From sequence record KY705409: DNA of 41,289 bases; one strand, written 5' to 3'. How positions within the stretch are numbered: position 1 is the stretch's first letter; the number at the start of each line of letters is the position of its first letter. Positions 1,838-40,728 of the stretch are shown here, piece by piece. Source of the DNA: Escherichia phage vB_EcoM_ECOO78. Below the pieces are notes generated by a model. The model did not search any database. It had not been told where the DNA came from and saw nothing but the letters and a program-made list of their open reading frames with translations. The position numbers were made by a program, and so were the translations under genes.

Positions 1838-2272
1838 TTATTGCCCCGTAGTCATTAGTAGTCGGTGCTGATGGTTGTCATTTGCAGGTGATGTGTCTTT
1901 GTGGGGTTTGTCAGTGCAGTGCCGCTTCACTGTGCGTTCTGAAACTTCCAGCAGTTCCGCAATGGCTTTTGCGTCCATTCCTTCGCCGTGCATCCGCTTG
2001 ATGCTGCGGTGAATGAAATGGCGGTAAATGTATTCACAATTAGCCGGGTGAAGCATTTCACCACCGAAGTGCTGCACCATCTTGCTGGCGTCACTCCATC
2101 CAAGAATTTTCACCAGGTGGTCATTAGGACGGATCCGCTTTGGCACATACAAAATGACTTTGTGGTACTGCTGCGATGGCACCCACAGCTTTGGTAGTTG
2201 TCCGATAAGATATAGCGCACGTTCACGGCCAATAACGTCAGCTATTTCCTGCACAGTGCGCGGTAATTCCAT
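1838..2272 (-). CDS. Mor-family (Mu Mor/C-like) transcriptional activator, candidate late-gene activator
   Basis: 144 aa; C-terminal HTH (AKAIAELLEVSERTVKRH) and overall Mor-like pattern; sits directly upstream of lysis/late genes. Confidence 0.45.
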   Translation of the reverse strand: MELPRTVQEIADVIGRERALYLIGQLPKLWVPSQQYHKVILYVPKRIRPNDHLVKILGWSDASKMVQHFGGEMLHPANCEYIYRHFIHRSIKRMHGEGMDAKAIAELLEVSERTVKRHCTDKPHKDTSPANDNHQHRLLMTTGQ

Positions 2273-4918: not shown

Positions 4919-4959
4919 TTTACTTATGTAAATGATATAATCGTTTATACCTATCAATA
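4919..4959 (-). promoter_or_regulatory. Conserved bipartite upstream element TATTGATAGGT-N15-ATTTACATAAGTAAA (copy 1, upstream of methyltransferase)
   Basis: Minus-strand sequence read directly; near-identical element at 10001-10042. Confidence 0.5.
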
Positions 4960-4990
4960 AAAACAAAACCCGCCGAAGCGGGTTATTATT
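4958..4990. terminator. Bidirectional intrinsic terminator (UUCG/CGAA-loop hairpin)
   Basis: aaaaacaaaacccgccgaagcgggttattatt: 5-bp GC stem, 4-nt loop, A/T-rich tracts on both sides; immediately after primase-helicase stop. Confidence 0.6.
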
Positions 4991-7311: not shown

Positions 7312-7542
7312 TTATGGCCTGTTAGCGCGCCATATGGCCAGTGCGCGTTGTTCTAGTTCTTCGCGGGCTGTTGCGCCGCGCCGTTTTTCTATCGCTGCCA
7401 GCAGGGTGCGCCGTGCTTCAATGGTTGGCTGTTTCAGGACGTATTTGGCTTCGCATTCCAGCAACCATTCCCGGCTATCGCTCAACACATCGCGCCCATC
7501 GTGCAGCGTCACTGTGGTGGGCTGCCAGGTACAGGCGTTCAT
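7312..7542 (-). CDS. Hypothetical protein
   Basis: 76 aa ORF in operon context, overlapping neighbour. Confidence 0.4.
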   Translation of the reverse strand: MNACTWQPTTVTLHDGRDVLSDSREWLLECEAKYVLKQPTIEARRTLLAAIEKRRGATAREELEQRALAIWRANRP

Positions 7543-7727
7543 TTTGCTGCCTGCGCGTTCAGTTTCAGTTCAAGCAATTCAAGCTGGTGGGTCGGAATGA
7601 CTTTCCCGCCCTTACACCGCCAGATAAGCACCGTTTGTTCAGTGCGCCCAAGTAAACGGCCAACGTCGCGGCAGGTTAAGCCATGTTCAGCCATAATGTT
7701 GTGAAGTCGTTCGGTCCTTTCGTCCAT
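7539..7727 (-). CDS. Small HTH DNA-binding protein (Cro/XRE-like regulator candidate)
   Basis: Start MDERTERL with GAGG RBS 6-9 nt upstream; HTH-like LTCRDVGRLLGRTEQTVLIWR. Confidence 0.45.
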   Translation of the reverse strand: MDERTERLHNIMAEHGLTCRDVGRLLGRTEQTVLIWRCKGGKVIPTHQLELLELKLNAQAAK

Positions 7728-7807
7728 AGTAATAGCCTCGTAATAACAATGCGCCCATAGTACAGGGCGCATTTCCGAAAGTAAATATCTTTTGAAATAA
7801 TCTTACT

Positions 7808-10051: not shown

Positions 10052-11467
10052 TCATCGCTTAAACCTTCTTCCGCCCATCTTCGCTATGGCCCAACCTGAT
10101 GGGTTCGGCAGCCCGCGTTTCATCGCCAGGGCGGTCAGTGCGCCAATATCCTTGCAAGCGTCCTCCTCGCGTTTCATTTTGGCGCGCAGGCTTTCTTTGG
10201 CGCGTTCGTCCATCTCTTTCAGTTCGCCTTCCGCCACTTCAATTTCTTTGGCTTCGGCCTGTAGTTCCTTCTGGCAGTGCGGGCACTTCGGCGGCAGTGG
10301 TCGGCGGATGGCGTTGAAACAGCCTTTGCAGATGACTGGCGGCGGTGGACCACCAGCACTGCTGGACTTGCTGCCGCTATCATCGCCAGACAGTGACCAT
10401 TCCCGTTCATCGTCAGGGAAGCCATGACGCAGCGCATTGCCTGCATGGTCCAGGATGATGGCGGTTTTGCCTTTGGACGGTCGCAACACGCGGCCATCTT
10501 TCTGCAAAACCAGCGACAATGATTGTGTGGGCTGCGCGTCAATCAGGCAGTCAATCGTCACGTCAGTCTGTGCGATAGCTGACAGGTCGAAACCTTCACC
10601 GAACAGCGACACGTTGAAAATCACATCCAGGTTGTCGTTGGCATAGTCCTGAATGATGCGCTTGCGTTCCGCCTTATCGGTGCCGCCATCCAGGTGCGCG
10701 GCGCGGATGCCTGAATCAATGAATGCCTGCGTTAAGTGGCGGCTGTGCGCGATGTTGACCGCAAAGCCAACCGTTTTCATGCCCCTGGCGTATTTCAGCC
10801 AGTGGCTGATGATGTTGCCGGTTAGTTTCGGCTTATCCATCTTCTCGGCGGTTTCTCCTTTTGAGAAATCGCCCATCTGTTTGCGTACACCCTTCATGTC
10901 AGGGATGTCCGGGCAGAACATGCGATAATCAGACAGGTGGCCGTTATCCATCAGCCAGCGCACCGATGGCCCCAACACGATGTCATCAAAGTGGTCATCC
11001 AGGCCGGTGCCGTCCAGGCGCTTTGGCGTGGCTGACAGGCCGATTACATACGCGCCATTCTCGAACAGCCAGGCGTTGACGCGCGCCCATCCAGCCGCGC
11101 CACAGTGGTGCGCTTCGTCCATGATGGCCAGCTTAGGAGCTGGCAGGGTGTGCAGGCGGTTTTTCAGGGTGTCGATGCTGCACACCTGCACCCCGGCGCG
11201 CAGGTTCATGGGATAGCCTGCGGCAATAAAGCCGTGGTCAATGCCGAACTTCCTGAATGTCAAACTGGTCTGTAATACCAGTTCAGCGCGGTGGCAAATA
11301 AACCACACCTGCTGGCCTTTGGCCGATGTTTCCCCAGCCATGTATGACGCCAGCGCAGTTTTGCCCGCGCCTGTTGGTGCCTGCAATAACACGCGGCGGT
11401 TGCGCCGCATAGAAAGGCGCGCCTTATTGATAATGTCGGATTGATAGTCCCTAAGTATTACGCCCAT
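10052..11467 (-). CDS. Superfamily-2 DEAD/DEAH-box DNA helicase
   Basis: Walker A LLQAPTGAGKT, DEAH box MDEAHHC, motif III GLSATP; C-terminal CxxC...CxxC zinc-finger-like segment. Confidence 0.85.
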   Translation of the reverse strand: MGVILRDYQSDIINKARLSMRRNRRVLLQAPTGAGKTALASYMAGETSAKGQQVWFICHRAELVLQTSLTFRKFGIDHGFIAAGYPMNLRAGVQVCSIDTLKNRLHTLPAPKLAIMDEAHHCGAAGWARVNAWLFENGAYVIGLSATPKRLDGTGLDDHFDDIVLGPSVRWLMDNGHLSDYRMFCPDIPDMKGVRKQMGDFSKGETAEKMDKPKLTGNIISHWLKYARGMKTVGFAVNIAHSRHLTQAFIDSGIRAAHLDGGTDKAERKRIIQDYANDNLDVIFNVSLFGEGFDLSAIAQTDVTIDCLIDAQPTQSLSLVLQKDGRVLRPSKGKTAIILDHAGNALRHGFPDDEREWSLSGDDSGSKSSSAGGPPPPVICKGCFNAIRRPLPPKCPHCQKELQAEAKEIEVAEGELKEMDERAKESLRAKMKREEDACKDIGALTALAMKRGLPNPSGWAIAKMGGRRFKR

Positions 11468-11504
11468 AATTATCGTTCATTCGCCATCATTTAAAGTATT
11501 CGCA

Positions 11505-11534
11505 ATTGTATGTTACTACATGGCGACGTTGCAA
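11505..11534 (-). promoter_or_regulatory. Candidate sigma70-type leftward early promoter (-35 TTGCAA, 18-nt spacer, -10 TACAAT)
   Basis: Hexamers read on minus strand; inverted repeat TTACTAC/GTAGTAA overlaps spacer and -35. Confidence 0.4.
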
Positions 11535-11548
11535 CCAGTAGTAATGTT

Positions 11549-11560
11549 CATTGACGTCAA
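11549..11560. promoter_or_regulatory. Perfect 12-bp palindrome ATTGACGTCAAT (candidate operator)
   Basis: Self-complementary 12-mer in the divergent intergenic region. Confidence 0.4.
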
Positions 11561-11659
11561 TCAAGCCGCGATGTGCAAAAAACGCATAGCTGATGTACAG
11601 CTAAGGTTTGTTGATTAGCGAGCGTGACGCTGATCTAAACAATGTTAGTTACAAATAAG

Positions 11660-11689
11660 TTGACAGTATAACAACACGTCAGCCATAAT
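11660..11689 (+). promoter_or_regulatory. Candidate sigma70-type rightward early promoter (-35 TTGACA, 18-nt spacer, -10 CATAAT)
   Basis: ttgacagtataacaacacgtcagccataat, about 50 nt upstream of the exonuclease start. Confidence 0.45.
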
Positions 11690-11740
11690 TCACCGCAGTT
11701 AATCCGAATTCATGTTAAATAATAATTGCGAGGTAACATA

Positions 11741-12910: not shown

Positions 12911-13900
12911 ATGGCAGTAATTAATATTCGTAAGGCAGAACGTGAAGGCGCGCGCCTGGTCATCGGCCTGGCAGGTATCAGCGGCAGCGGCAAAACCCTG
13001 TCAGCACTTATGCTGGCATATGGCCTGGCCAACGGTGACGGCACAAAGGTTGGCTTTCTCGATACTGAAAACCGCCGCGGCTCACTGTATGCCAGTGATG
13101 ACACTTATGAAAAAATCCAGGAATCACTTGGACTGAAAGAACGCCCTGACGCGTTTTGGATTGGCGATTTAGAACCGCCTTTCAGCCCGCAGCGGTACAT
13201 TGACGCCATCCGCGAATTTGAACAGGCAGGCGTTGAAGTGCTGGTGATTGATAGCATTTCGCACGAATGGGAAGGAACAGGCGGATGCGAAGAAATCGCC
13301 ACCCTGGCCAACCCGATGAAGCCGCAGTGGAACCGTGCGAAGGCTGAACACAAGCGATTCATGAACGCGTTGCTGCAATCCAACATGCACATCATCTGCT
13401 GCATCCGCGCACGTGAAAAAGTGAAACTGGTGAAGGTCAACGGTAAAACGGAATATGAACCGCAAGGCATCATGCCGGTGACGGAAAAGAACGTGATGTT
13501 TGAAATGACCGCCAGCCTGATGATGTGGGATTCTGGCAGCGCGCAGCAGGTCATGAAGTGCCCGGAAGAATTGCGCGGCATCTTAGGCCGTGAAACTGGC
13601 TACATCAGCGCACAGGACGGTTTATCGCTGCGTCAGTGGGTTCAGGGTGGCAACAAGTTAGATCCGAAGGTGGAAGCCTACCGCAACAAGCTGCGCGGCG
13701 TTACCGAACAGGGTGAGCAGTACACGCAGGAATGCTGGGACAAAACCCCACCAGCAATTCGCAAAAAGCTGGGCGATGAATTCAAACAATCATTGTTGCA
13801 AGCCGCCCGCGCATATGACGAACAGCGCGCCAACGCAAACGGCGATGCGCAGGACGTTGATGATTTAAACAGCCAGGTGATGGGCACCGGCGCACAGTAA
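12911..13900 (+). CDS. Sak4-like RecA-fold ATPase (AAA_24 family single-strand annealing/recombination protein)
   Basis: Walker A GLAGISGSGKT; Walker B-like VLVIDSISHEWEG; adjacent to exonuclease and SSB. Confidence 0.65.
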   Translation: MAVINIRKAEREGARLVIGLAGISGSGKTLSALMLAYGLANGDGTKVGFLDTENRRGSLYASDDTYEKIQESLGLKERPDAFWIGDLEPPFSPQRYIDAIREFEQAGVEVLVIDSISHEWEGTGGCEEIATLANPMKPQWNRAKAEHKRFMNALLQSNMHIICCIRAREKVKLVKVNGKTEYEPQGIMPVTEKNVMFEMTASLMMWDSGSAQQVMKCPEELRGILGRETGYISAQDGLSLRQWVQGGNKLDPKVEAYRNKLRGVTEQGEQYTQECWDKTPPAIRKKLGDEFKQSLLQAARAYDEQRANANGDAQDVDDLNSQVMGTGAQ

Positions 13901-13913
13901 GAAAGGGTAAAAA

Positions 13914-14141
13914 ATGGCACAACCGGCACAGAAACAAAGCACGTATCTGACGCCACAGGAACTGGTGCTGCGCTGGAATGGCGCAGTTACCACCGGAACC
14001 CTGGCGAACTGGCGCAACAAAGGCAAAGGGCCAGCCTATACGAAATTTGGCTCACGCGTTCGCTACTCCATCACCAGCGTGGAAGCGTATGAAGCAAAAC
14101 ACATGATTGGAGCAAACGACAATGACACGACCACCGGCTAA
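13914..14141 (+). CDS. Small HTH DNA-binding protein (AlpA/excisionase-like family)
   Basis: YLTPQELVLRW...TLANWRNKGKGPAYTKFGSRVRY pattern. Confidence 0.45.
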   Translation: MAQPAQKQSTYLTPQELVLRWNGAVTTGTLANWRNKGKGPAYTKFGSRVRYSITSVEAYEAKHMIGANDNDTTTG

Positions 14142-15293: not shown

Positions 15294-15719
15294 GTGGAAA
15301 GTAAAAAGTGCTTTAAGTGCGGGGAGGTTAAAAGCCTCTCCGATTTTTATAAGCATAAAGGGATGGCTGATGGCCATCTTAACAAGTGCAAAGATTGCAC
15401 CAGAAGTGATGCCAAGTCACACCGACTTGAAAATATTGACCAGATACGCGCTTACGACCGTAAACGCGGAAACCGTCAAGATCAATCATACGTCAAAAAT
15501 TACCGCCAGCAGTATCCAAACAAATACCGCGCACATACGATGGTAAACAACCATTTGCGATATGGGAATATCACAAAGAAACCATGCGAAATCTGCGGCA
15601 GTGAGCAATCAGTTGCCCATCACGACGATTACTTAAAGCCGCTTGATGTTCGTTGGTTGTGTCAGGCGCATCACAAGCAATGGCACGCTGCAAACGGTGA
15701 AGGAAAGAACGCAGTTTGA
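15294..15719 (+). CDS. HNH endonuclease family protein
   Basis: Cys pairs CFKCG...CKDC and C-terminal CEICG...AHHDDY...HH motif; GTG start with GGGGG RBS; AT-richer than flanks. Confidence 0.6.
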   Translation: MESKKCFKCGEVKSLSDFYKHKGMADGHLNKCKDCTRSDAKSHRLENIDQIRAYDRKRGNRQDQSYVKNYRQQYPNKYRAHTMVNNHLRYGNITKKPCEICGSEQSVAHHDDYLKPLDVRWLCQAHHKQWHAANGEGKNAV

Positions 15720-15725
15720 CCAAAG

Positions 15726-15751
15726 AAAAACCCCGCCGAAGCGGGGTTTTG
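15726..15751. terminator. Intrinsic terminator after rightward early operon
   Basis: aaaaaccccgccgaagcggggttttgtg: 6-bp GC stem, 4-nt loop, T-tract. Confidence 0.65.
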
Positions 15752-16228
15752 TGTCACGTGACGCTGTGATGCGAGATACAGATCACCTGCCTTATTGGAA
15801 TCACTTGTCGGGTAAGTTCCAGTCTGTGCGAATGTCGCACTGGGATGCGCTTTCACGTTGCGAGGTAACACCCTGGGGGTTGGAAGTGTTCGCAAAAGCG
15901 CATCACGGTGCGTTGTGGTGCTGTGCATCAGCGCTTCCTTCGTCGCCTTGGTGAGCTGCAACCACACCAACTAGCATTTGGATTTACCACAACGTAAAGA
16001 GCACTTTCATCGCTGCAACATGACGGTAAATAGGATTCACTGCATCACGTACAAAATGCTCTTAACTGTTGCGTGCCGTCCTTTCACGGCGGTCATCGTG
16101 TATCGCTCGACAGCGTGACTCTCTATAACTGACAATATAATCCTATATCACTCCAGTGCATTCTGCAACCATATTTACCATTTATTCATCTCCTCGATCA
16201 TCTTCTGTAGGTAGTCCACTCTGTAGGT

Positions 16229-16257
16229 TACAGGTTCGATTCCTGTAGGGGTCGCCA
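16229..16257 (+). other. tRNA 3'-end-like fragment (T-arm, acceptor 3' strand, CCA); attP-core or tRNA-like RNA candidate
   Basis: acagg-TTCGATT-cctgt T-arm, then aggggtc, g, CCA; no complementary 5' acceptor strand or D/anticodon arms upstream. Confidence 0.4.
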
Positions 16258-16261
16258 CCCA

Positions 16262-16288
16262 ATAGAAAGCCCGCCAGGTGGCGGGCTG
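16262..16288. terminator. Hairpin agcccgcc-aggt-ggcgggct; terminator for end of late operon and/or for the tRNA-like unit
   Basis: 8-bp GC-rich stem; U-rich stretch on minus strand (uuucuauu) after the hairpin. Confidence 0.45.
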
Positions 16289-16291
16289 TGG

Positions 16292-16636
16292 TTAGTTTCT
16301 GAATTGCAGGTAACGCATGTGGATTAGGTGATCCACAAAGGTGGAATCATAGCCAGGCACGCAATTTAGTTCATGGTGGAACCTCTCCGCATCGGTGGCT
16401 GGACGAACTGCATTGATTCCGCGCATATTCACTTCCGGGCAACCTTCGCCCTTACCTTCCGCAATCCTCACGTGTAACCGGCAACCGTTATCACCAGGCT
16501 CGTCATCCAAAGATTGCCACACCTGATAGCCACAGCAGTAGCCAACAACGTCACCACGGCTGGCAGTTTTGTACACGATACAATCACCAATTTCCGGCAC
16601 ATATGGCATGTTATTTTCTTGCTTGAATGCTTTCAC
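16292..16636 (-). CDS. Hypothetical Cys-rich protein
   Basis: 114 aa ORF, GTG start with GGGGAG RBS; last gene before terminator. Confidence 0.45.
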   Translation of the reverse strand: MKAFKQENNMPYVPEIGDCIVYKTASRGDVVGYCCGYQVWQSLDDEPGDNGCRLHVRIAEGKGEGCPEVNMRGINAVRPATDAERFHHELNCVPGYDSTFVDHLIHMRYLQFRN

Positions 16637-16645
16637 AATCTCCCC

Positions 16646-16936
16646 TTACGCCGTCAGTTCGGCGGGTTTGTCTTTGGTTAGTTGTTCCTGTTCATGGTCC
16701 GGGTCGCCGTCGATTGGCAGCAGGTTTTGCGCCCGTACCTGCGCAACTTCATTACCAGGCAGCAGGCCATAAACCCGCCACCAGCGTTCGACTGGTTCAC
16801 CTAGCGCCATAGCCAGCAATTCTGACTCCCGATAGCTGGCAAGCCCAATCAGGCGCACGCACTTGCCGTTCCCTTCCGGTCTGGCGCGCAAACCGTAAAC
16901 CAGCGCCAGGCCACCGGCTTTCAGTTCGCCTTTCAT
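16646..16936 (-). CDS. Hypothetical protein
   Basis: Start MKGELKAGG with GGTGA RBS; ATGA overlap with upstream gene stop. Confidence 0.45.
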   Translation of the reverse strand: MKGELKAGGLALVYGLRARPEGNGKCVRLIGLASYRESELLAMALGEPVERWWRVYGLLPGNEVAQVRAQNLLPIDGDPDHEQEQLTKDKPAELTA

Positions 16937-17175
16937 ACGATCACCTTTGCGCTCAGGTATCCGCAACGTAGTTTCAGCTTTACTGTTTTGCTTTGGTTCT
17001 TGTACGGGTAATCACCGCCAGCTTTTATTGAAGCATAACCACCGCTGGAAAATTCAGGCGAGCGGGTTAAAGCCTTCACATCCTTGTAAAAAAGTTCTCG
17101 CAGCTTGGCTTTTTCCATCACCTTTTCGGTGTGCATCCTGGTACGTAGTGTGTTGAATTCGTTATTTGTCATCAT
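16933..17175 (-). CDS. Hypothetical protein
   Basis: 80 aa ORF overlapping ParB-like gene end. Confidence 0.4.
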   Translation of the reverse strand: MMTNNEFNTLRTRMHTEKVMEKAKLRELFYKDVKALTRSPEFSSGGYASIKAGGDYPYKNQSKTVKLKLRCGYLSAKVIV

Positions 17176-18043
17176 TCACCCCACCAACGTAGTCAGCCAC
17201 CAGCGCCATGAATTCACGCACCACGCCAGCAGGTGCGCGCAGGGTCATGGATTCGTCAGGCTCGGCATCTTCCAGCCGGTCATCGCTGTGGACCAGTTCG
17301 ATTTGCACAGCCAGGTCAGCCAGGCGCGTCAGCTTGTCTTTGCCGAACGGTGGCTGGATGGCTTCCGTCTTGGACTTAGGCGCTTTCGGTGCCTTCGGTT
17401 CGGTGAATTTCTTTGTTACTTTATCCTTGCCAGCGGCTTTGGCTTCTTCCAGCGCCTGTGCGGCCACGGCTTCGGCTTCGGTGCCGTGCTGGCGGGTTAG
17501 TTCAGTGGCGGTCACGTAGGACATCTGGCCACCGCGTACCATGTCTTTGATTGGTTCCGGGCACTCAGCCAGGGCCAGCATGTTGGCCACGTCTGACGGG
17601 CTGCGCTTCACCTTCTTGGCTATCTCGTCATTGGTCCAGCCCTGCGCTTTCAGGCGCGCATAGGCTTTGGCGCGTTCCAGCGGTTCCAGCGGCTTGCCCT
17701 GGCTGCTGGTGACCATCAGCGCGATTTTGTCAGCCTCACTGGTGCCGGTGATGTCGTTCACTTCCAGGCGCAGTTCCAGGCCGGTTTCTGCGGCCATCTT
17801 GGCACCAGCAAAGCGGTGGTGGCCGTCAATCACCTTGATGCCCTGCTGCGTCACTTCCACGGTCAGCGGCGGCACATATTCACCGGCCAGGTACGCATCG
17901 CGGAATTCTTCAACGTGCGCCTGGTCCACGTCGCGAATGTTGTAGCCATCTTCCACATACAGTTCAGCCAGCGGCACCCAAAACACCTTGCGCGGCGTTG
18001 CTGCGGTTTGTTTTGATTTATAAAGTTGCCCGATAGTAGCCAT
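17162..18043 (-). CDS. ParB-like nuclease-domain protein (ParB/Srx fold N-terminal domain)
   Basis: Motif KVIDGHHRFAGAKMAA; Lys/Ala/Pro-rich central linker; no ParA partner in window. Confidence 0.65.
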   Translation of the reverse strand: MATIGQLYKSKQTAATPRKVFWVPLAELYVEDGYNIRDVDQAHVEEFRDAYLAGEYVPPLTVEVTQQGIKVIDGHHRFAGAKMAAETGLELRLEVNDITGTSEADKIALMVTSSQGKPLEPLERAKAYARLKAQGWTNDEIAKKVKRSPSDVANMLALAECPEPIKDMVRGGQMSYVTATELTRQHGTEAEAVAAQALEEAKAAGKDKVTKKFTEPKAPKAPKSKTEAIQPPFGKDKLTRLADLAVQIELVHSDDRLEDAEPDESMTLRAPAGVVREFMALVADYVGGVNDDK

Positions 18044-18123
18044 TTACATAACCCCCAATACAAATGAAGTGATTAGAAATTAAGCCCATACAATAATGAT
18101 GGGCAGATCGCGTTTTTTAACAA

Positions 18124-18825
18124 TCATTGTTTACGGTAACCTTTGCCAGAAAGCCAAATTGAAATTTCTGTGGCAACACCAATGTCAAGACTGGTTTTTG
18201 TAGTGGCCGCAAAGTTAGCCAGTTCGTAAAGTATTTCATCACGCGCTTCACATTCATTCAGGTCGGCTTCTAACTGCGCATCGCTGGGTTTGACAGCATC
18301 GCGCTTCACATCAATGCAAGCGGTTTCTAATTCATTCTTATCCACCAGGCGGTAAGCAATGATGTCACCGCTACTTCCATGATGCGACCATACAAAATCG
18401 CCTGCTCTGTCATTACTGAAATGAAGCGGGCTAGGTTTCCGGAATTTGACTTCAACAATTGTGTCACTATCCACCGGACATTCACCACCATGCCAATCAA
18501 TCCAGCCGTTATTGCCAAGCACGGCTTGACTGGCTGCCATCGCGGATTCGTATTTTTCGCGAGTTACAATTGATATGTTCCAGTCATTAGCAGTAATGTA
18601 ATGGCGGAAGTTTCCTTCAAATGGTCTGTCGCCATAAATCCAGTCATCACCATCTTTATTACTGCACCATTCGCCTGCTTTAATATGCAAAAAATTGATT
18701 GATTTTGAAAATTTTACAGTTCCGTCAGAATCCTGCACTGCATAGTTAGCCGCTTTAGGCCACCCGCCAACTTTAGGAAGTGTTTCGACCAGTATTTGCA
18801 GCAGGGTTTTATTTGATGTGTTCAT
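18124..18825 (-). CDS. Hypothetical protein (AT-rich moron candidate)
   Basis: 233 aa ORF; lower GC than flanks; own upstream AT-rich promoter-like region plus hairpin and GAGGTAA RBS. Confidence 0.5.
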   Translation of the reverse strand: MNTSNKTLLQILVETLPKVGGWPKAANYAVQDSDGTVKFSKSINFLHIKAGEWCSNKDGDDWIYGDRPFEGNFRHYITANDWNISIVTREKYESAMAASQAVLGNNGWIDWHGGECPVDSDTIVEVKFRKPSPLHFSNDRAGDFVWSHHGSSGDIIAYRLVDKNELETACIDVKRDAVKPSDAQLEADLNECEARDEILYELANFAATTKTSLDIGVATEISIWLSGKGYRKQ

Positions 18826-18919
18826 GTGGGCATTACCTCGTTATTTATCCGGGCAGGTCATCCGCCCGGTTAAGGTAATGATATACGATGATGTAGAATG
18901 ATTGCAACAATGTTTGTTG

Positions 18920-20074
18920 TTATTTTTCTTCGATGACGTGACCAGGGCCGTCATCGCCTTCGTTAATGTCCTTTTCTTCTATCACGTGACCAGGGCCATC
19001 ATCGTCTGGCGGGTCGCTTTCTTGCGGCTTCTTGCGCTCGATGATTTGCACATGCGGTTCTTCTTCGCTGTTTGGCTTCGTTGCTTCCACGTCGCAAGAA
19101 TAACCGTTGTCATCCATCCGGTGATCTGCGCGGGTAATCAGCCATTCGCCATCAATGCCATCGCGGAACCCCACCAGCACCAGCTTGCATTCAGCGGCAA
19201 TGGTCGGGTCACCCGGCAGCGTCACGGCAACAGTCACCTGGTTGCGCTGACGCTTCGACAGTTCGGCTTTGGCTGCGTCCAGTGCCATTGCCTGCGTTGG
19301 GTAGTATTTTCCAATGCGTTTTACCGGCTCACCTTCTCCCACCTTCACTTCGTTGCGCGCGGCCTTCTTCGTCACCTGGTAGTAAGCCACCACCGTGCCT
19401 GCGTTTTCGCGCTTCTGGCTGGTTAGCCGGAATGCGGTGCAATCCTGCGCCGTCAGCGTTATGGTTGGCAGTTCTTCGCCGCTGGCCGTCTTACCTTCGC
19501 CGCGCTTCGTGACCGTGATTTTGCCGCCTGATGGTTTCACTACGCCGTCATATTTCTTGGCCAGTCGCAGCAACAGGTTCAGGTCAGATTCATCGGCCTG
19601 GTCGGTGTGGGGTAGGGTGATTTTGGCCATGCTCTCTGACACGGCTGATTCCATGCCGTGTTCTTCGGCAATCTTCTTCACCATGTCGCCAAACTTCGTG
19701 CCTTTGGTCCAGCTACGTGATTTCTGTGTTTGCAGGTCGGTTTTGCCGCCATTCGATTTGTCATAGGTGGCAGCACGCGCCCTGATGGTCATGGTGCCTG
19801 GCCAGCCAGCTAATTCCACTTCGTCACAGATGAACAGGCCCATGCGTTGGGTCCAGTTGTCATAACCCAGGAACAGTTCCAGTTCTGCGCCTGTTTCCGG
19901 CATCTGGATTGGGTTGGCCGGTTCATCATCAGCCAGGCTGATTTCCAGCGTGTCAGATTCCAGCCCCACGCCATCAGACAGGCTAAGGCTTATCAGACGT
20001 TCATTGATTTTGGCTGTGATGTCATCGCCGTTGGCCAGTACGCGAAACGCTGGCGCAATTCCAGTCAATCCCAT
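18920..20074 (-). CDS. Tail protein D (P2 gpD-like late control/tail protein) with C-terminal tandem repeat
   Basis: 384 aa; position after U and X in P2-type order; C-terminus DDGPGHVIEEK repeated twice. Confidence 0.75.
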   Translation of the reverse strand: MGLTGIAPAFRVLANGDDITAKINERLISLSLSDGVGLESDTLEISLADDEPANPIQMPETGAELELFLGYDNWTQRMGLFICDEVELAGWPGTMTIRARAATYDKSNGGKTDLQTQKSRSWTKGTKFGDMVKKIAEEHGMESAVSESMAKITLPHTDQADESDLNLLLRLAKKYDGVVKPSGGKITVTKRGEGKTASGEELPTITLTAQDCTAFRLTSQKRENAGTVVAYYQVTKKAARNEVKVGEGEPVKRIGKYYPTQAMALDAAKAELSKRQRNQVTVAVTLPGDPTIAAECKLVLVGFRDGIDGEWLITRADHRMDDNGYSCDVEATKPNSEEEPHVQIIERKKPQESDPPDDDGPGHVIEEKDINEGDDGPGHVIEEK

Positions 20075-20274: not shown

Positions 20275-20684
20275 CAGTTGAACCGCCGAAGTTGCAAATT
20301 GAATTCCTGTTTTCGTGGCGCACCGAACGCCGCAAACAATGATTGTTTTTCGTCAATAGCTTCAATCACCCAACGGCCCCACAGTTTACCCAGGCCATCA
20401 ACCAGCAGCAGCGGATGACCACGGCCAGCCATGCTGCGCATTTGCTCAACCTGCTGAAACCCGCCACGGTATTCAGGGTAAATGATGCCTGCCAGGGTTA
20501 TGGTTTCCTCTCCGATGCCCACGAATTGAGAAGATGGGCGCTGGCCAAAGCGGTGCTGCGATGGCCACTTATATTCGCTGTGGCGGTTCAGTTCCTGATA
20601 TGCCGCAGTAAGGATGCAGAACTGGAAGCTGCCCAACATCATCATGATGTTGGTCTGCCCGGTTAAAATCGTGAAACTGGTCAT
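20274..20684 (-). CDS. Tail protein U (P2 gpU-like)
   Basis: 136 aa; position immediately after tape measure gene. Confidence 0.7.
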   Translation of the reverse strand: MTSFTILTGQTNIMMMLGSFQFCILTAAYQELNRHSEYKWPSQHRFGQRPSSQFVGIGEETITLAGIIYPEYRGGFQQVEQMRSMAGRGHPLLLVDGLGKLWGRWVIEAIDEKQSLFAAFGAPRKQEFNLQLRRFN

Positions 20685-23442: not shown

Positions 23443-23502
23443 TTCTTATCGCCTCAAACAATGATTGTTGAAAATGGCCAGCCAAATGACTGGCCGTAAA
23501 AA

Positions 23503-25436: not shown

Positions 25437-25508
25437 TCTTTAGGTTCCTATTATCTGTGCACACAGTGAAAATTCGCAGTGTGATGGTCGCAGGAACCGT
25501 GCGTGGCT

Positions 25509-25525
25509 TCTTCTTGGGGTTTGTC
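25509..25525 (-). repeat. Copy 1 of exact 17-bp motif (minus strand GACAAACCCCAAGAAGA), intergenic upstream of sheath gene
   Basis: Plus strand TCTTCTTGGGGTTTGTC, immediately after terminator hairpin. Confidence 0.9.
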
Positions 25526-25528
25526 CGT

Positions 25529-25550
25529 AAAAAAGCCCGCCGAAGCGGGT
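25529..25550 (-). terminator. Intrinsic terminator/attenuator (UUCG-loop hairpin plus U6)
   Basis: Minus strand acccgc-UUCG-gcgggc followed by UUUUUUA. Confidence 0.6.
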
Positions 25551-25562
25551 AAAGGCGACAAA

Positions 25563-31699: not shown

Positions 31700-31732
31700 G
31701 CGGGCAATGATGCCCGCATGGGTGATGGTTTA

Positions 31733-31749
31733 TCTTCTTGGGGTTTGTC
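31733..31749 (-). repeat. Copy 2 of exact 17-bp motif, intergenic between V stop and W start
   Basis: Plus strand TCTTCTTGGGGTTTGTC. Confidence 0.9.
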
Positions 31750-31752
31750 AGG

Positions 31753-34554: not shown

Positions 34555-36600
34555 TTACGCGTTGCGGCCTAGGCAGAAGGATTCAACGCGGCGCACCGCA
34601 AAATCCACGTCCTGGAATACCACGATGCGCAGGCCACCGGATTTGCTCAGGCTGTACGGGTCAACAGTCATATCCAGGCCACCCCACATACCAACCACCA
34701 GGTCAGCGAAGTTGCCAAAGAACACGTCACCATCCTGCACCTGGTTGGTAACTTCGGCGCGGTAACCGTTCAGGGTGTTGCCCGGCTCCCAAATCACGCC
34801 AGCGTCAGCAACGGAAGAACCACTGGCAAACTTCGGCGTGGTTTTCGCAGCGCCACGGCCACGCGCGTTAAGCACATATGCCATGTTGTTCACGTCAGCG
34901 TTGTCAGCCGCGATTTCGGTTTCCATCTGCACCAGTTCCGCATAAGTCGGATTGGCTGCTGCGAAGTCTACCGCGTTAATGCCGGTGTAGTTCGCCAGGC
35001 CAAGCGGCTGGTTGCTGGTGCCTGTGCCGTAGTAACCAGCGTAATCAATCGCCTGCGCGATAGCTGCCACCAGGTCACCACGCACGATGGCTTCCGCATC
35101 CGGGGTGGATTGCATCAGCAGGCGGCGTGTAATGTCGGTGTATGCCGCAACAGTTTTCGGTGACAAGCCAAGCTGGCCGATGGTCGGCGTGGTTTCGGTT
35201 GCGTCATCACCTTCACCAATCCAGTAGGCAGTAGCACCGCCAGTCTGTTTTGGGATTTCGACGTTGCCAACCAGGCCGCCCATAGTACGCGCCAGGCGCA
35301 TGATGGTGGTGCGCGGGCGCAGCAGGTCGATGAACGAACCGGCCATAAAGTCAGTGCCAACCAGGTTAGAACCGGTTTGAGCGCCTGCCGGGGTGTTCGG
35401 TGCGCCACCAGCGTTGAATGCACGCAGAACATCGTCAGGGATCAGGATGCCTTTTGCACTGCGGCCATACTGCTGTTGCGCTGCGTGGCTGCATTCGATT
35501 TCAAACGCTGCGGCACGCTGTGCGGCTGCATCGTTCGGGTTAGCCAGAGCGCGAACCACGTTGAAAATGCTGTAGCGGCGGATGTCTTTGTCAGACATAC
35601 CAATCACGCTGGACGGCATTTCTGACAGCGGCTTGCTGCCTGAACGGGTGCCATCAGCCGGTTGTGCCGGGTCTTTCGGCTTGTTCAGGTGGTCCAGCAA
35701 GGAACGCTGGAAATCTTCGGCGGTGGTGCCTTCGCCAATCGCTTTCAAAGCCAGGTCACGTGCGTTGTACTTCTCGCCCATCTCAGTGATGGAACGCACG
35801 CGCGCTTTTTCAGCTTCACGGCCACGCTGTTCAGCGTTGCGCGTATCATCGCCAGCACGTTCCAGCATTTCCAGAACCTGCGTGATGTTGCCTTTTTCGT
35901 CTACCATTGCGCGCACCAGGTTACCGGCTGCGTCGCGCAGAATTTTTTCCATTCTAATGCCCTCAGATGCAATATTTGTTGGTGCTGGAACCTCTACGGT
36001 GCCCGCAGTATCGGATTTGCCGACGCGTTGTTCTTCTTGGGGTTTGTCAAACGCACGCCCAATGCCAACGCTGGTGTCAGCGGGAACGCTCACAATTGAA
36101 ATTTCGAACGGTTCCCATTCAGTGATGCGGTAGACATCCTGCCACTCGTCACGCGTTTCCTGTAGCTTGGCCGCTAACACGCGGTAGCCAACGGAAACAT
36201 GCTTGCGAATGCCGTCAACGATGTCCTGGAAAATCTCGTCAGCGCGTGCACTTCGGCCAAAGCGCACCACAGCCCGCCCCCGGCGGTCAGCGTCAATGCT
36301 GACTGATTCAACAACGCCCACCTGGTCAGTCCAATCGTGGTCAACCAGCAGCGCCCCACCGTCACGCAGACGGTCCAGGCGCACGCTTTCCGGCGAATGG
36401 TCCAGAATTTCGATACCGTACCAGCGTTCAACCTCGATTTCGGATGAAAACGCCAGTTCTACGGTGCGTTTTTCGGTGTCAAACTTGCGCACTTCCATAG
36501 TGCGCACCAGCCCGCCTTTGTTGAAATCAGGCAGCGTTTTGCTGTCTGATTTGCGGGTAAATTCGGCCCCAATGATGCTATTCAGCAGGTTTTTCTGCAT
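34555..36600 (-). CDS. Fused prohead protease, scaffold-like linker and HK97-fold major capsid protein
   Basis: 681 aa: N-terminal HK97-type prohead protease-like region, charged coiled-coil linker, C-terminal capsid-like domain; possible internal in-frame start at 35952 (GAGGG RBS). Confidence 0.75.
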   Translation of the reverse strand: MQKNLLNSIIGAEFTRKSDSKTLPDFNKGGLVRTMEVRKFDTEKRTVELAFSSEIEVERWYGIEILDHSPESVRLDRLRDGGALLVDHDWTDQVGVVESVSIDADRRGRAVVRFGRSARADEIFQDIVDGIRKHVSVGYRVLAAKLQETRDEWQDVYRITEWEPFEISIVSVPADTSVGIGRAFDKPQEEQRVGKSDTAGTVEVPAPTNIASEGIRMEKILRDAAGNLVRAMVDEKGNITQVLEMLERAGDDTRNAEQRGREAEKARVRSITEMGEKYNARDLALKAIGEGTTAEDFQRSLLDHLNKPKDPAQPADGTRSGSKPLSEMPSSVIGMSDKDIRRYSIFNVVRALANPNDAAAQRAAAFEIECSHAAQQQYGRSAKGILIPDDVLRAFNAGGAPNTPAGAQTGSNLVGTDFMAGSFIDLLRPRTTIMRLARTMGGLVGNVEIPKQTGGATAYWIGEGDDATETTPTIGQLGLSPKTVAAYTDITRRLLMQSTPDAEAIVRGDLVAAIAQAIDYAGYYGTGTSNQPLGLANYTGINAVDFAAANPTYAELVQMETEIAADNADVNNMAYVLNARGRGAAKTTPKFASGSSVADAGVIWEPGNTLNGYRAEVTNQVQDGDVFFGNFADLVVGMWGGLDMTVDPYSLSKSGGLRIVVFQDVDFAVRRVESFCLGRNA
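36032..36048 (-). repeat. Copy 3 of exact 17-bp motif, inside protease-capsid gene (encodes DKPQEE)
   Basis: Plus strand TCTTCTTGGGGTTTGTC. Confidence 0.9.
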
Positions 36601-38679: not shown

Positions 38680-40728
38680 TCACCAGCGGCTAACCCATCC
38701 ACCGCCACGGCGTTTGGATGCCCTGGCGGAACGTTTAATGGGCTTAGTCTCTGTGACTTGCTGTTTTTCTTCTTCTTGGGGTTTGTCATTGGCCGGTTGC
38801 GGCACTTCCACCGGTTTCACGATGGGTTTGACGTTCGGCAGCCGCTTGCGCCGTTCCGGTGGCGCGTTGTCGTTCGCTACGCCAAACTTTTCAGCCAGGC
38901 GGCGGAATGACGGCTGCATGATTTTAAGCGCGGCCAGCGCATAGTTGCGGCAGTCCAGTGCTTCGTTGCGCGCCCGGTCGGGTTTCTTCCACTCGCGGAT
39001 TGGCTGGCCCTTCACGTAACGCATGGTCAGCTTTTCAGCGGTGATTTGCTTAAACCATTCTTCATCGCGGTCAGCAGGGAAGTGGCAGAAACCTGGCCCC
39101 GGTGCCGTCTTGTTTAAACGCCGTGCGGTAATCAGCTTGGCTTCATCGGTGCCCACCAGGAATAAATCCACTTTGCGGGCATCCTTCCCGGATTGCTTGC
39201 GCTGCGGCTTCTCCACGATAGGACGGCCCCAACCGCCCACGCCTTTGATGGCAAACAGGCGGCGGCCTGTGCGCCCTCTGGCGTAGTCATAGGCGGCCTG
39301 CGTGTAACCGCTGGTGCCCCCGGTATCGAGACAGGCGGCCATAATCGGCATGATGGCCCCGGTTTCGTGCTGGTAGGTTTCCGCCAGCAGGTCATCCAGG
39401 GCATCCCAGGGGTCAGGCGTCAGCGGGTCACCCCACAGAACGTGGTAACCCAATGACCAGGATTCTTCACCCACGCCCCAGGCCACCACTTCGCATTCCA
39501 GGCGGTCAACCTGCATGTCTATGCCTGCGGTGATATACAGCCCACCAGCAGGCACCTGCGCTGCGTATTCCTCGCGGCGCGCCATCAGTGAATCCGGGTC
39601 AACCTTGTCGCCTTCTTCTTCCCAGGTGCGCGCCAGGCTGACGTTGGTGAAGGTTTGCAGGTCGTCAGTTTTCAGCTTGTCCAGGTAGTCACGCACGATG
39701 GCCGGAACTTTGCGGAATGTGCTGTATAGTTCGTTCAGGTGGTAGCTGGCGTGCCCTTCAAACGGCCTGGACGCCTTCCAGCCTGCGCCCTTTTCTTCGG
39801 CCTGGCGGATAGCCGCTATCCGTTCGCCGTCATTCCACTGCGCGCCGCACGATGGGCAGTACAGGTGCGCGGTTTCCGGCCTCTGTTCGTCGATGGCCGC
39901 CAGCGTTTCCGCGTCAGTTTCGCGCTGGCCATCCCATTTGACGTATTCCCATTCAAGCGTAACGTGATCGTCACAGTGCGGGCAGCAAACGAAGAAATGC
40001 CGCTGGTCGCCCATTTCATATGCTTTTTCGATGTAGGATTCCCCTTTAAGGGTAGGGGTGCTGATTTCCAGCAAAAACCGCTGGTCACCGAAGGTGGCAG
40101 AACGCTGCCACAGCAGGCCAACCGGGTGCCCTTCGCTGGTTCGTTCATATCCGTCTACCTCGTCACATACAATCAGCGGCGCTGAACGCCCGCGCATGGT
40201 CTTTGGCGAACCGGACCAGGCGAACATCAGGAACCCGCCAGGGTATGATTTCATTTTCTGGTTGTTCACCCCGTCGCGGCCACGCGGTTTGGCAATAGCG
40301 TTGTTTACCGGCGCGCATTCTTCCGCCAGCGGGTTGAATTTCGTTTCCAGCCAGGTGCGCAAGTCATCCTGGCTTGGCTGCATCATCATCTGGCTGCGCG
40401 GTTCAGCGGCTACGCTGTACGCCTGCACGCACAGTGCCAGCATGGTTTTGCCCACCTGCGCGCCCCACATCAGCGTTACGCGGTAGCAATCAGGGTCAAC
40501 CAGCATGTCCATTGGTTCGCGTTGGTATGGCGCGTTATCCAGGCGCAGCGGTCCTGGCACGGCGTTGCCAGACGGAATGCGGATGTTTGCCTGCGCCCAC
40601 TCTGACGGCTTCATGTCTGGCGGCGGCAACAATTGTTGTTGTGCGCGCCGGATGGCCTGGTCAATGCCTTCGATATTGGCAAACGGGTTATTCTTCGCTG
40701 TCACCGTCGCCCCCTTCGTCATAGCCAT
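38680..40728 (-). CDS. Terminase large subunit (lambda gpA family)
   Basis: 682 aa; Walker A-like GAQVGKT, Walker B LIVCDEVD; C-terminal basic tail. Confidence 0.85.
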   Translation of the reverse strand: MAMTKGATVTAKNNPFANIEGIDQAIRRAQQQLLPPPDMKPSEWAQANIRIPSGNAVPGPLRLDNAPYQREPMDMLVDPDCYRVTLMWGAQVGKTMLALCVQAYSVAAEPRSQMMMQPSQDDLRTWLETKFNPLAEECAPVNNAIAKPRGRDGVNNQKMKSYPGGFLMFAWSGSPKTMRGRSAPLIVCDEVDGYERTSEGHPVGLLWQRSATFGDQRFLLEISTPTLKGESYIEKAYEMGDQRHFFVCCPHCDDHVTLEWEYVKWDGQRETDAETLAAIDEQRPETAHLYCPSCGAQWNDGERIAAIRQAEEKGAGWKASRPFEGHASYHLNELYSTFRKVPAIVRDYLDKLKTDDLQTFTNVSLARTWEEEGDKVDPDSLMARREEYAAQVPAGGLYITAGIDMQVDRLECEVVAWGVGEESWSLGYHVLWGDPLTPDPWDALDDLLAETYQHETGAIMPIMAACLDTGGTSGYTQAAYDYARGRTGRRLFAIKGVGGWGRPIVEKPQRKQSGKDARKVDLFLVGTDEAKLITARRLNKTAPGPGFCHFPADRDEEWFKQITAEKLTMRYVKGQPIREWKKPDRARNEALDCRNYALAALKIMQPSFRRLAEKFGVANDNAPPERRKRLPNVKPIVKPVEVPQPANDKPQEEEKQQVTETKPIKRSARASKRRGGGWVSRW
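38771..38787 (-). repeat. Copy 4 of exact 17-bp motif, inside 3' end of terminase large-subunit gene (encodes DKPQEEE)
   Basis: Plus strand TCTTCTTGGGGTTTGTC. Confidence 0.9.

Follow-up and report, generated by a model that had tools for sequence, protein, structure and literature searches.

The ParB-family protein KorB, the global repressor of the IncP plasmid RK2, is carried by a mobile element and acts at several copies of a 13-bp palindromic operator of the 6-1-6 format, of which one immediately precedes a -35 element and others are remote from promoters (PMC11790492). KorB is the best structural match of an orphan ParB-like protein encoded by the lytic Jilinvirus phage vB_EcoM_ECOO78, the genome of which was analysed here as one window (the whole stretch of 41,289 nucleotides). 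The candidate phage operators share the format and disposition of the KorB sites, and korB as well as the phage gene is accompanied by a small gene, of about 100 aa. Nevertheless, the sequence identity of the two proteins is about 20%, KorB has intact CTP motifs and is the ParB partner of IncC (ParA) whereas the phage protein reads GHHR and TSSQG at these motifs and has no ParA, and KorA is a HTH repressor whereas the small phage protein, OrfD, has no detectable HTH or similarity to KorA.

Noc and ParB/Spo0J have the same N-domain and HTH core as the phage protein, which resembles their recognition-helix consensus and, like Noc, is an orphan lacking the ParA-binding motif. In contrast to them it is phage-encoded, has no evident membrane-targeting helix and is degenerate in boxes II and III, and its candidate site has no relation to parS or to the site bound by Noc. 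The genome of phage-plasmid N15 likewise encodes a ParB-family protein, SopB, which binds four single, dispersed inverted repeats instead of one array (IR1-IR4; PMC7205306), but N15 is a plasmid prophage with SopA, and vB_EcoM_ECOO78 has no ParA, integrase or cI. HerB/YfjB of the F-plasmid leading region and BisD of ICEclc are orphan ParB-like proteins of mobile elements that regulate transcription and do not segregate DNA (PMC13370423, PMC12409273). HerB (650 aa) has an extra dimerisation module, and its targets on the host chromosome share no clear motif; BisD is a CTP clamp that switches on ICE genes. The CTP motifs are canonical in both, and neither is closely related in sequence to the phage protein. 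The orphan prophage ParB-like class of Kaljevic et al. 2025 fits the phage protein, given its ParB fold, its location outside parAB and the missing ParA-binding motif; that survey catalogued such proteins but assigned no functions, and phrog_1033, the family in question, received neither function nor binding site (PMC12704722). The palindromes and the small partner are specific to the present analysis.

Results and discussion

Organization of the block downstream of gene D

Five minus-strand ORFs lie 3' of tail gene D, at the coordinates of the ORF list, and end at a terminator that adjoins a tRNA 3' fragment (Table 1). ARAGORN detected no whole tRNA, whereas a whole tRNA-Arg is annotated at the position of the fragment in HeidiAbel and Arya. 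The layout and signals of the original prediction were thereby confirmed, including an AT-rich 233-aa ORF (orfA; GC 0.44 vs 0.53 for the genome) behind a promoter-like region. None of the five proteins matched a structural family in Pfam, PHROGs or NCBIfam, in line with the expectation that the block encodes no recognisable virion protein. The orfA promoter region is near-invariant among relatives with about 80% DNA identity. In phage KA2-1 the hairpin with which the predicted transcript begins carries a compensatory change (CCCGGC...GCCGGG), and a hairpin of other sequence occupies the gap between orfA and the ParB-like gene in KA2-1, L096, L097 and Arya. The block is non-structural and has a predicted promoter of its own, within a conserved region, and the late-promoter motif is absent from it. 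The earlier view that late transcription continues through the block is an assumption only.

Table 1. Features of the block, its flanks and the palindrome set of vB_EcoM_ECOO78 (positions in the window)
Feature	Position	Strand	Remarks
Early-region palindrome	13785..13797	.	AACAATCATTGTT; about 120 bp upstream of 75-aa Xis/MerR-like gene
Integrase remnant	16154..16222	-	last 23 codons only; tblastn with HeidiAbel integrase, 65% identity, E = 8e-5
tRNA-Arg 3' part, attP core remnant	16221..16257	+	T-arm, acceptor strand, CCA
Intrinsic terminator ending block	16268..16287	-	strong, 8-bp, GC-rich, -16.7 kcal/mol
orfE, 114 aa	16292..16636	-	Cys-rich near-ORFan; GTG start, GGGGAG ribosome-binding site; attP-side variable slot
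orfD, 96 aa	16646..16936	-	ATG 16936; phrog_2529; acidic tail ending KDKPAELTA
orfC, 80 aa	16933..17175	-	240-bp insertion, GC 0.44, between ParB-like gene and orfD
Orphan ParB-like protein, 293 aa	17162..18043	-	ParB/Srx-type N-domain (DGHHR), ParB HTH, linker, small C-terminal domain
Hairpin, then T-rich tract	18084..18104	-	gap between orfA and ParB-like gene; possible attenuator
Palindrome O2	18119..18131	.	AACAATCATTGTT; overlaps orfA stop codon
orfA, 233 aa	18124..18825	-	AT-rich hypervariable mosaic; conserved core GWIDWHGGECPVDSD...DIIAYR
Hairpin, 5' end of predicted orfA transcript	18849..18869	-	CCGGGCGGATGACCTGCCCGG, -15 kcal/mol
Candidate sigma-70 promoter of block, before orfA	18878..18907	-	TTGCAA-18-TATCAT, 9/12 matches
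Palindrome O1	18906..18918	.	AACAATGTTTGTT; 15-mer form CAACAAACATTGTTG
Tail gene D	18920..20074	-	upstream boundary of block; Pfam Phage_GPD, E = 7e-13
Palindrome in 3' end of gpU	20335..20347	.	AACAATGATTGTT; 60 bp upstream of gpX
Palindrome between tail tube gene and gpE	23457..23469	.	AACAATGATTGTT; just after hairpin 23476-23495
Weaker site, 5' part of large terminase gene	40628..40640	.	AACAATTGTTGTT; 15-mer form CAACAATTGTTGTTG

The ParB-like gene and, 3' of it, orfD are present in all eight Jilinvirus-type genomes examined, and the ParB-like protein is 98% identical in most relatives. The orfA, orfC and orfE slots are exchangeable, AT-richer cassettes around this conserved core. Thus the designation of the locus as an accessory cluster is appropriate for these three genes but not for the ParB-like gene and orfD. 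OrfA belongs to phrog_26870, though its two halves match different PHROGs; its homologues, on contigs of ~41-43 kb, are 40-91% identical, only a 9-codon remnant is left in L097, and its AF2 model is poor (pLDDT 53). The start and stop codons of orfC overlap the neighbours on both sides. Among the compared phages this insertion occurs only in vB_EcoM_ECOO78, being absent from HeidiAbel and ep3, with an unrelated 67-aa ORF in the same slot of L098; no family match was found in Pfam, PHROGs or NCBIfam and tblastn gave one weak match among phage records. OrfE forms a single cluster among 5.8 billion proteins, has no match in 50,697 phage records and is replaced by unrelated genes in HeidiAbel, Arya and L097.

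The true start of orfD is most likely ATG 16936, and not TTG 16966 (106 aa, 16646-16966), because the homology of the relatives begins there and the codon shares the sequence ATGA with the stop of orfC. In the relatives, orfD overlaps the ParB-like gene and the two are thus translationally coupled; in vB_EcoM_ECOO78 orfC intervenes. The OrfD family comprises only about 10 cluster representatives and has no similarity in Pfam or PDB. We reject the label "ATPase" given to orfD in public records, as the Walker A motif is absent.

A KorB-like fold with degenerate CTP motifs

The ParB-like protein matched HTH_ParB in Pfam (PF17762, E = 4e-13, 49.8 bits vs a cut-off of 22.6), and Pfam ParBc was not reported at E <= 0.01. 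Over N-domain residues 38-174 it was aligned with Spo0J/ParB by phmmer and hmmsearch, with a phmmer match in PDB at E = 2e-10. The AF2 model has a pLDDT of 87, exceeding 90 throughout the N-domain, and matches DNA-binding-domain structures of KorB and ParB: in the Foldseek search of PDB, KorB ranked best (8qa9, E = 1.4e-9, TM 0.65 normalised by target length), ahead of ParB and Noc, with ~190-207 columns aligned, and Srx and SerK appeared as weak fold matches only. The Lys/Ala/Pro linker (approximately residues 200-228) is predicted to be disordered. The ParB/Srx fold and the linker of the original prediction were thus confirmed. The "nuclease domain" also proposed there found no support: the fold matches that of the DNA-clamp members KorB, ParB and Noc, and nothing indicates nuclease activity.

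In the alignment, box II is DGHHRFA vs GERRYRA, with one of three Arg kept (the second), and this change is family-wide (DG[HQ]HR). Box III is TSSQG vs ENLQR, with Glu, Asn and Arg gone; the lost Glu and Asn are residues used in hydrolysis and clamp closure, and canonical box III also coordinates Mg2+. Neither canonical ParB-CTPase switch, the GERRxR arginine patch of box II or the ENLQR of box III, is thus present. Because the CTP motifs are degenerate, a KorB-style CTP clamp appears doubtful, judging from the sequence; the nucleotide specificity of such proteins is unpredictable from sequence or AlphaFold 3 (PMC12704722). The recognition helix is near the ParB consensus (S-x-VAN-x-L-x-L).

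The N-terminus of the protein, MATIGQLYKSKQTAATPRKVFWV, lacks the N-terminal ParA-interaction motif [LFI]G[KR]G[LFI] (as defined in PMC12704722). The deviant Walker A of ParA, KGGxGK[ST], was found in no frame of the genome, Walker A occurs only in three replication proteins (primase-helicase, DEAD-box helicase and an AAA_24 protein), and ParA is annotated in none of the fully annotated relatives.

A conserved set of 13-bp palindromes

The genome contains four perfect copies of the 13-bp palindrome AACAAT-N-ATTGTT and six with at most one mismatch vs 0.19 expected; none of 100 shuffles yielded six. The five best copies lie within a 9.7-kb arc around the ParB-like gene (p about 0.015). This palindrome set is described here for the first time. 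O1 begins directly after the stop codon of D and adjoins the -35 element of the candidate orfA promoter, the O1 centre being near -41 relative to the predicted start, and O2 lies 75 bp upstream of the ATG of the ParB-like gene. Such placement, at a promoter and upstream of the own gene, is classic operator geometry.

A site at the position of O1 is kept in HeidiAbel, ep3, KA2-1, Arya, L096, L097 and L098. O2 is conserved in all relatives, and every orfA allele ends in ...GYRKQ*, the codons of which make up O2. All five clustered palindromes are conserved in position in KA2-1, Arya, L096 and L097, and L098, HeidiAbel and ep3 have every palindrome that falls inside their shorter compared stretches. 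Moreover, the palindromes are the most conserved blocks in alignments of the surrounding DNA, and L097, with orfA cut to a remnant, has yet retained the promoter and both flanking palindromes. As Jilinvirus genomes are syntenic, conservation among them does not constitute independent evidence. At the position matching the weaker terminase site, KA2-1 (649) and Arya (653) have CAACAA-N3-TTGTTG.

The palindromes are not cI operators, because they persist in phages without cI and, in the cI-bearing L096, none lies between cI and the helicase gene. The existence of the set points to regulation exerted on phage DNA. Instead of the ParB-like protein, the phrog_14341 repressor (7539-7772), the Xis/MerR-like protein (13914-14141) or the late activator (1838-2272) could own the palindromes, and a host factor is another possible binder.

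The pairing of palindrome and protein was followed across alleles and phages. Jilinvirus ParB-like N-domains fall into two alleles, DGHHR and DGQHR, that are only 42-57% identical; both go with a common recognition helix (RSPSDVANxLAL) and the same palindromes. Lambdoid alleles have another recognition helix and no such palindromes. In the unrelated Skatevirus phages a one-mismatch copy, AACAATAAATGTT, is located in the 5' UTR of the operon containing the ParB-like gene, with an estimated chance probability of about 1e-3 to 5e-3. No recurring palindrome was found beside ParB-like genes in 80 lambdoid-type loci, a contig with a Mu-like tail, Persinger or FoX1.

Proposed mode of regulation

We tentatively favour the reading that the ParB-like protein is an orphan regulator of the ParB family, similar to KorB or Noc and acting at a set of operators of its own, an assignment that we consider plausible, although short of probable. 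We infer that the palindromes are bound by the protein itself. As a dimeric HTH protein it would recognise AACAAT-N-ATTGTT, and occupancy of O1, abutting the orfA -35, and of O2, upstream of its own start, would result in autoregulation of the block. Through the palindromes of the distal tail operon and the early arm, these transcription units would also come under its control, either by local occlusion or possibly by nucleotide-gated sliding. The direction of regulation, any use of a nucleotide and any role of OrfD would likewise be conjectural. A role outside lysogeny is in keeping with the retention of the gene in a phage that lacks integrase and cI, and with its place directly behind the early DEAD-box helicase gene in Persinger and FoX1. 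It is possible, but clearly more speculative, that the ParB-like protein and its 96-aa partner form a long-range regulator of a lytic phage, controlling the cassette locus and parts of the tail and early operons through dispersed palindromes as a phage counterpart of KorB-KorA that uses another nucleotide or none.

Alternative roles of the ParB-like protein

It is unlikely that the block is host-directed or anti-defence cargo, in which the ParB-like protein acts on host DNA or host systems and the palindromes belong to another regulator. Prophages and plasmids commonly carry orphan ParB-like proteins, for which anti-defence roles have been proposed (PMC12704722), and HerB, a ParB-like CTP binder, attaches to the chromosome and reprograms host transcription (PMC13370423). 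In addition, lambdoid homologues occupy early accessory positions (directly behind N, in the interval from cII to O, or within the early-left arm), and the neighbours orfA, orfC and orfE have the hypervariable or ORFan character expected of arms-race genes. Nevertheless, PADLOC returned no match for four block proteins and one marginal match of 14.6 bits for the fifth, and with no methylase gene in the block either, the anti-defence, DNA modification or host-takeover function of the original prediction found no direct backing. The BASEL phage HeidiAbel, which bears the same module, is reported to be very sensitive to restriction-modification systems (PMC11990801). The ParB-like gene is genus-wide and not variable, and a cargo role leaves the clustering of palindromes on this gene and the promoter unexplained.

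Slightly less likely still is an organiser of phage DNA, with complexes at dispersed sites aiding replication, recombination, packaging or late expression. In two related genera (Persinger and FoX1) the ParB-like gene directly follows the early DEAD-box helicase gene within the replication operon, and KpV2811 carries it in an island together with genes for a methylase, endonuclease VII and RusA; the weak palindrome near the start of the large terminase gene and the dispersed SopB sites of N15 point the same way. The N15 Sop system reportedly facilitates late gene expression, a finding ascribed to Ravin, Rech and Lane in 2008 (J Bacteriol). However, a ParA/SopA partner is absent from the genome, a replication or packaging role has no direct support, and the two best-placed palindromes sit at a promoter and upstream of the own gene, as would be the case for the regulator favoured above.

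One-protein partition or nucleoid hitchhiking of a plasmid-like carrier state, with the palindromes as centromeres, is highly improbable. A ParB-family gene amid clustered palindromes formally resembles a parB-parS pair, and the Jilinvirus lifestyle has been called enigmatic, but the plaques of the relatives are clear, without any indication of lysogens (PMC11990801). vB_EcoM_ECOO78 has no cI and its integrase is reduced to 23 codons, yet the ParB-like gene is kept. Close homologues are found both in Skatevirus phages, which are strictly virulent, and in lambdoid prophages, which integrate, and a search of 5,426 complete E. coli genomes with their plasmids gave no match to the block. The phage therefore does not look like a replicon in need of active segregation, the kind on which type I ParABS systems reside. 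With no ParA, no ParA-interaction motif, integrase and cI lost, and homologues in virulent phages, a classical partition role is very unlikely, as originally predicted, and the label "partition protein" on this gene in public records is misleading.

The least credible alternative is a ParB/Srx-type nuclease or DndB-like enzyme acting chemically on DNA: the N-domain has DG[HQ]HR and not GERR, a motif type common to DndB-type "DGQHR" proteins and Srx/SerK-type ATP-binders, and Srx and SerK do appear among the weak fold matches, but the best fold and sequence matches are HTH-bearing DNA-clamp members, no DndB or nuclease family was matched in Pfam or NCBIfam, and methylase genes are missing from the block and dnd genes from the window.

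Conclusions

Few unexplained genes of phages and plasmids are as common as those for orphan ParB-like proteins, and the phrog_1033 family has tblastn matches in 302 of 50,697 phage records. For one genus, this family is now paired with a concrete candidate binding site. If the ParB-like protein does bind the palindromes, this would represent ParB-fold regulation in a lytic phage without ParA and would provide a natural variant for asking what pockets of the GHHR/TSSQG type bind. If it does not, the palindromes would still stand as a conserved, unassigned regulatory element of Jilinvirus phages.

Organisation of the block downstream of tail gene D

All five minus-strand ORFs that follow tail gene D were found where the original prediction had placed them, and the promoter-like site upstream of orfA, the terminator, the tRNA 3' fragment, the AT-rich composition of orfA (GC 0.44) and the Lys/Ala/Pro linker of the ParB-like protein proved equally real. 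Two details are corrected: orfD most likely starts at the ATG at 16936 and encodes 96 aa, and HeidiAbel and ep3 lack orfC, a 240-bp insertion that overlaps its neighbours at both ends through start and stop codons. The 293-aa product of the ParB-like gene matches, at 100% identity, the "ParB-like partition protein" annotated in the already published vB_EcoM_ECOO78, whose gene appears as "transcriptional regulator" in PMC5539073. The Jilinvirus phages ep3, HeidiAbel (Bas97), PT1 and ECO1230-10 are 92-97% identical to the window over the shared parts.

Positions of the features in the window
Feature	Position	Strand	Remark
orfA	18124-18825	minus	variable slot
orfA core	18410-18580	minus	about 60 aa
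ParB-like gene	17162-18043	minus	293 aa
orfC	16933-17175	minus	variable slot
orfD	16646-16936	minus	core
orfE	16292-16636	minus	variable slot, attP side
Terminator	16287-16268	minus	
tRNA 3' fragment	16221-16257		attP
Integrase remnant	16154-16222		last 23 codons
Palindrome	13785		early arm
Palindrome O2	18119-18131		overlaps orfA stop, 75 bp upstream of ParB ATG
Palindrome O1	18906-18918		directly past D stop, abuts -35 of orfA promoter
Palindrome	20335		within end of gpU
Palindrome	23457		between tail tube gene and gpE, past a hairpin
TGACAAACCCCAAGAAGA (five copies)	1891-1913, 25504-25526, 31728-31750, 36027-36049, 38766-38788	minus	
Late activator	1838-2272		phrog_836
GGTGAC array	2332-2653	both	13 hexamers, non-coding
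HNH or endonuclease VII-like gene	15294-15719	plus	phrog_2340, E = 1e-40
Gene D tandem duplication	18924-19007		48 bp, 89% identical
AAAACCCGCCGAAGCGGGTT hairpins (four, related)	2654-2682, 4959-4987, 15722-15750, 25526-25554		GC-rich, operon ends

The block was compared across eight Jilinvirus-type genomes: the window, HeidiAbel, ep3, KA2-1, Arya and three metagenomic contigs (L096, L097, L098). Gene order is the same in all eight, running from D through a variable gene, the ParB-like gene, an orfD homologue and variable small genes to a tRNA-Arg attP, beyond which an integrase is found in some genomes and is missing in others. The ParB-like gene and orfD occur in 8/8 genomes and share a genome-typical GC content of 0.59; the variable slots are AT-richer (0.44 to 0.49). 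The block is a conserved two-gene core with three cassette slots, a division first drawn in this analysis, so that the earlier description as an accessory cluster holds for the slots of orfA, orfC and orfE and fails for the ParB-like gene and orfD. Between the two core genes lies orfC in the window and an unrelated 67-aa ORF in L098, and the attP-side slot holds orfE in the window and unrelated genes in other genomes. In Pseudomonas phage Persinger a tRNA and then the integrase directly follow gene D; in Xanthomonas phage FoX1 two unrelated genes do. Arya (L009, 23588-24555) carries an annotated 44-aa gp29 that is the ParB-like C-terminal domain read as a separate ORF, so that either a frameshift or a sequencing error has split its gene; an integrase pseudogene is also present there.

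The orfA family is mosaic, with 40-91% identity between otherwise similar contigs. Its ends are conserved, the N-terminal segment is hypervariable, the core (GWIDWHGGECPVDSD...DIIAYR) is invariant, and the C-terminal modules are swappable, with DUF3310 in some of them. In L097 a deletion has left nine codons of orfA. Widely distributed among phages as a small domain, the core (GWIxWxGGxCPV...DIIAYR) was found in 131 phage records, which include Skatevirus, Wifcevirus and Bcep781-like phages as well as other virulent ones, and is sometimes duplicated or fused to DUF3310. The AF2 model of orfA reached a pLDDT of 53, and about 30 across the conserved core, and a profile search of the PDB returned zero matches. 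For orfD the PDB search gave chance matches only and Pfam nothing at E <= 10. No families and essentially no homologues were found for orfC and orfE, the latter forming a single cluster among 5.8 billion proteins. No complete E. coli genome matched the block by megablast, and Rfam gave no family in the window.

The BASEL paper (PMC11990801) terms the lifestyle of Jilinvirus enigmatic, since some members have an intact integrase and cI and in others these are decayed. Since the integrase is reduced to its last 23 codons in the window and a cI-like repressor gene is not detectable there (regions 16154-16222 and 11467-11726), ECOO78 derives from a temperate-type genome and is obligately lytic. 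The attP tRNA fragment is still retained despite these losses.

Other features of the genome

Late genes for holin, tail sheath, baseplate and head proteins each start some 40-100 nt downstream of a copy of TGACAAACCCCAAGAAGA; one copy comes after a terminator. The late activator probably acts on this motif as a late promoter element. The ParB-like protein itself was rejected as late-gene activator, given this separate activator and the non-palindromic late motif, which occurs at five late starts and nowhere in the block. The GGTGAC array upstream of the late-activator gene, part of a genome-wide excess of the hexamer (61 copies vs 18 expected), could be an iteron/origin-like or regulatory region. 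The HNH or endonuclease VII-like gene adjoins the SSB gene and probably represents the insertion of a homing endonuclease; HeidiAbel has an unrelated 227-aa gene at this position. The duplication at the 3' end of gene D repeats the peptide DDGPGHVIEEK right before the stop codon, and the AAAACCCGCCGAAGCGGGTT hairpins make up one family, whose members are terminator-like in both directions.

The ParB-like protein

Sequence searches placed the protein in the ParB family (Pfam HTH_ParB, phrog_1033 and, below its cut-off, TIGR00180), and phage orphan ParB-like proteins are a recognised class (PMC12704722). The AF2 model was confident (pLDDT 87), and the closest solved structures in the PDB were KorB, followed by ParB and Noc, which makes a nuclease reading unlikely. 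Residues E31, G33, N35, R37, D73, G74, H76 and R77 are invariant in the family. Aligned to solved ParB proteins, box II reads GHHR in place of GERR and box III TSSQG in place of ENLQR; these replacements make a canonical CTPase cycle doubtful, and nucleotide binding of some form is possible (PMC12704722).

Homologues with 45-60% identity are located in early operons of lambdoid prophages, on a phage contig with a Mu-like tail, and in virulent Skatevirus phages, where they form an opposite-strand island within structural genes. In the Skatevirus-related Klebsiella phage KpV2811 this island also carries a methylase, endonuclease VII and RusA. In a match-based search, where records without the gene would not show, the Skatevirus homologue was matched in every genome-reduced seszw record among the matches listed, two by a shorter match. 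These contexts argue against a virion role and against partition, already doubted in the original prediction; ParA is encoded nowhere within the window, and partition is unlikely. The window protein is a mosaic as well: its C-terminal part is shared by the DGQHR alleles of Jilinvirus (56-80% identity) and its N-domain is not (42-57%), and the lambdoid alleles show the opposite pattern.

A candidate operator set

A 13-bp palindrome, AACAAT-N-ATTGTT, was first seen in a repeat scan and then confirmed by targeted searches. The window holds four perfect copies and six at <=1 mismatch (0.19 expected), and five sites fall inside 9.7 kb around the ParB-like gene (p about 0.015). The sequence AACAATCATTGTT is the predicted candidate target of the 293-aa protein, and the candidate operator set is new in this analysis. 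KA2-1, Arya, L096 and L097 have sites at 5/5 positions, and L098, HeidiAbel and ep3 have every site that falls inside their shorter fetched stretches; the sites are the most conserved local blocks in the alignments. The orfA promoter region is almost invariant among relatives and persists in L097 despite the deletion of orfA; it consists of the palindrome, the hexamers TTGCAA and TATCAT spaced by 18 nt, a 5' hairpin in which one change is compensatory, and the ribosome-binding site.

Outside Jilinvirus, the 838 kb of 80 IMG/VR lambdoid-type loci contained two matches at <=1 mismatch, against about 1.8 expected, and the 300 bp upstream of the ParB-like homologue genes were not enriched (1 observed vs 1.5 expected). 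The palindrome was absent from Serratia, Atlantibacter and Chimaeribacter prophages, the Mu-like-tail contig and Shewanella phage 1/44. The ParB-island promoter of the Skatevirus-type phages Seszw_1 (L007, 4640-4740) and KpV2811 (L093, 3480-3580) is near-consensus sigma-70 (TTGACG-17-TATAGT), its -10 being flanked by two direct TGACGTAGA repeats and followed by the near-palindrome AACAATAAATGTT immediately ahead of the ribosome-binding site.

[quoted passage not shown]

Weighing the points on both sides, we tentatively regard the ParB-like protein as a KorB/Noc-like regulator predicted to bind the candidate sites, at somewhat short of even chances. The sites cluster on its gene and promoter, and both Jilinvirus N-domain allele types keep the helix RSPSDVANxLAL together with the same sites, which the lambdoid alleles, with other helices, lack. 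Rejection of the sites as cI operators counts in the same direction, as does a one-mismatch copy in Skatevirus, phages unrelated to Jilinvirus, where it lies in the 5' UTR of the operon that forms the ParB island, directly past a strong sigma-70 promoter. The geometry resembles that of the KorB sites on RK2, where a 13-bp, 6-1-6 operator is repeated several times and in one case immediately precedes a -35 element (PMC11790492). Against this stand the encoding of other regulators in the genome, the conservation of the sites among genomes that are not mutually independent, and the failure to find a co-varying palindrome for other ParB-like alleles; de novo searches for recurring palindromes gave nothing convincing in the lambdoid-type, prophage, Mu-like-tail and Shewanella phage loci or in Skatevirus, Persinger and FoX1 genomes.

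A role as in phage N15, which has dispersed SopB sites (PMC7205306), would have the protein organise DNA or help late expression, and overlaps with the regulator model. Host-directed or anti-defence cargo, as originally proposed, is possible by analogy with HerB (PMC13370423), but it finds no direct support: PADLOC detected nothing of note among the block proteins, and HeidiAbel is reported to be sensitive to restriction-modification systems (PMC11990801). The ParB-like gene belongs to the core of the lineage and is not cargo, for which the evidence is new here. In both Persinger and FoX1 the early operon contains a distant ParB-like gene (31-32% identity), directly past a DEAD-box helicase; thus the ParB-like function is common to all three genera examined and its location differs.
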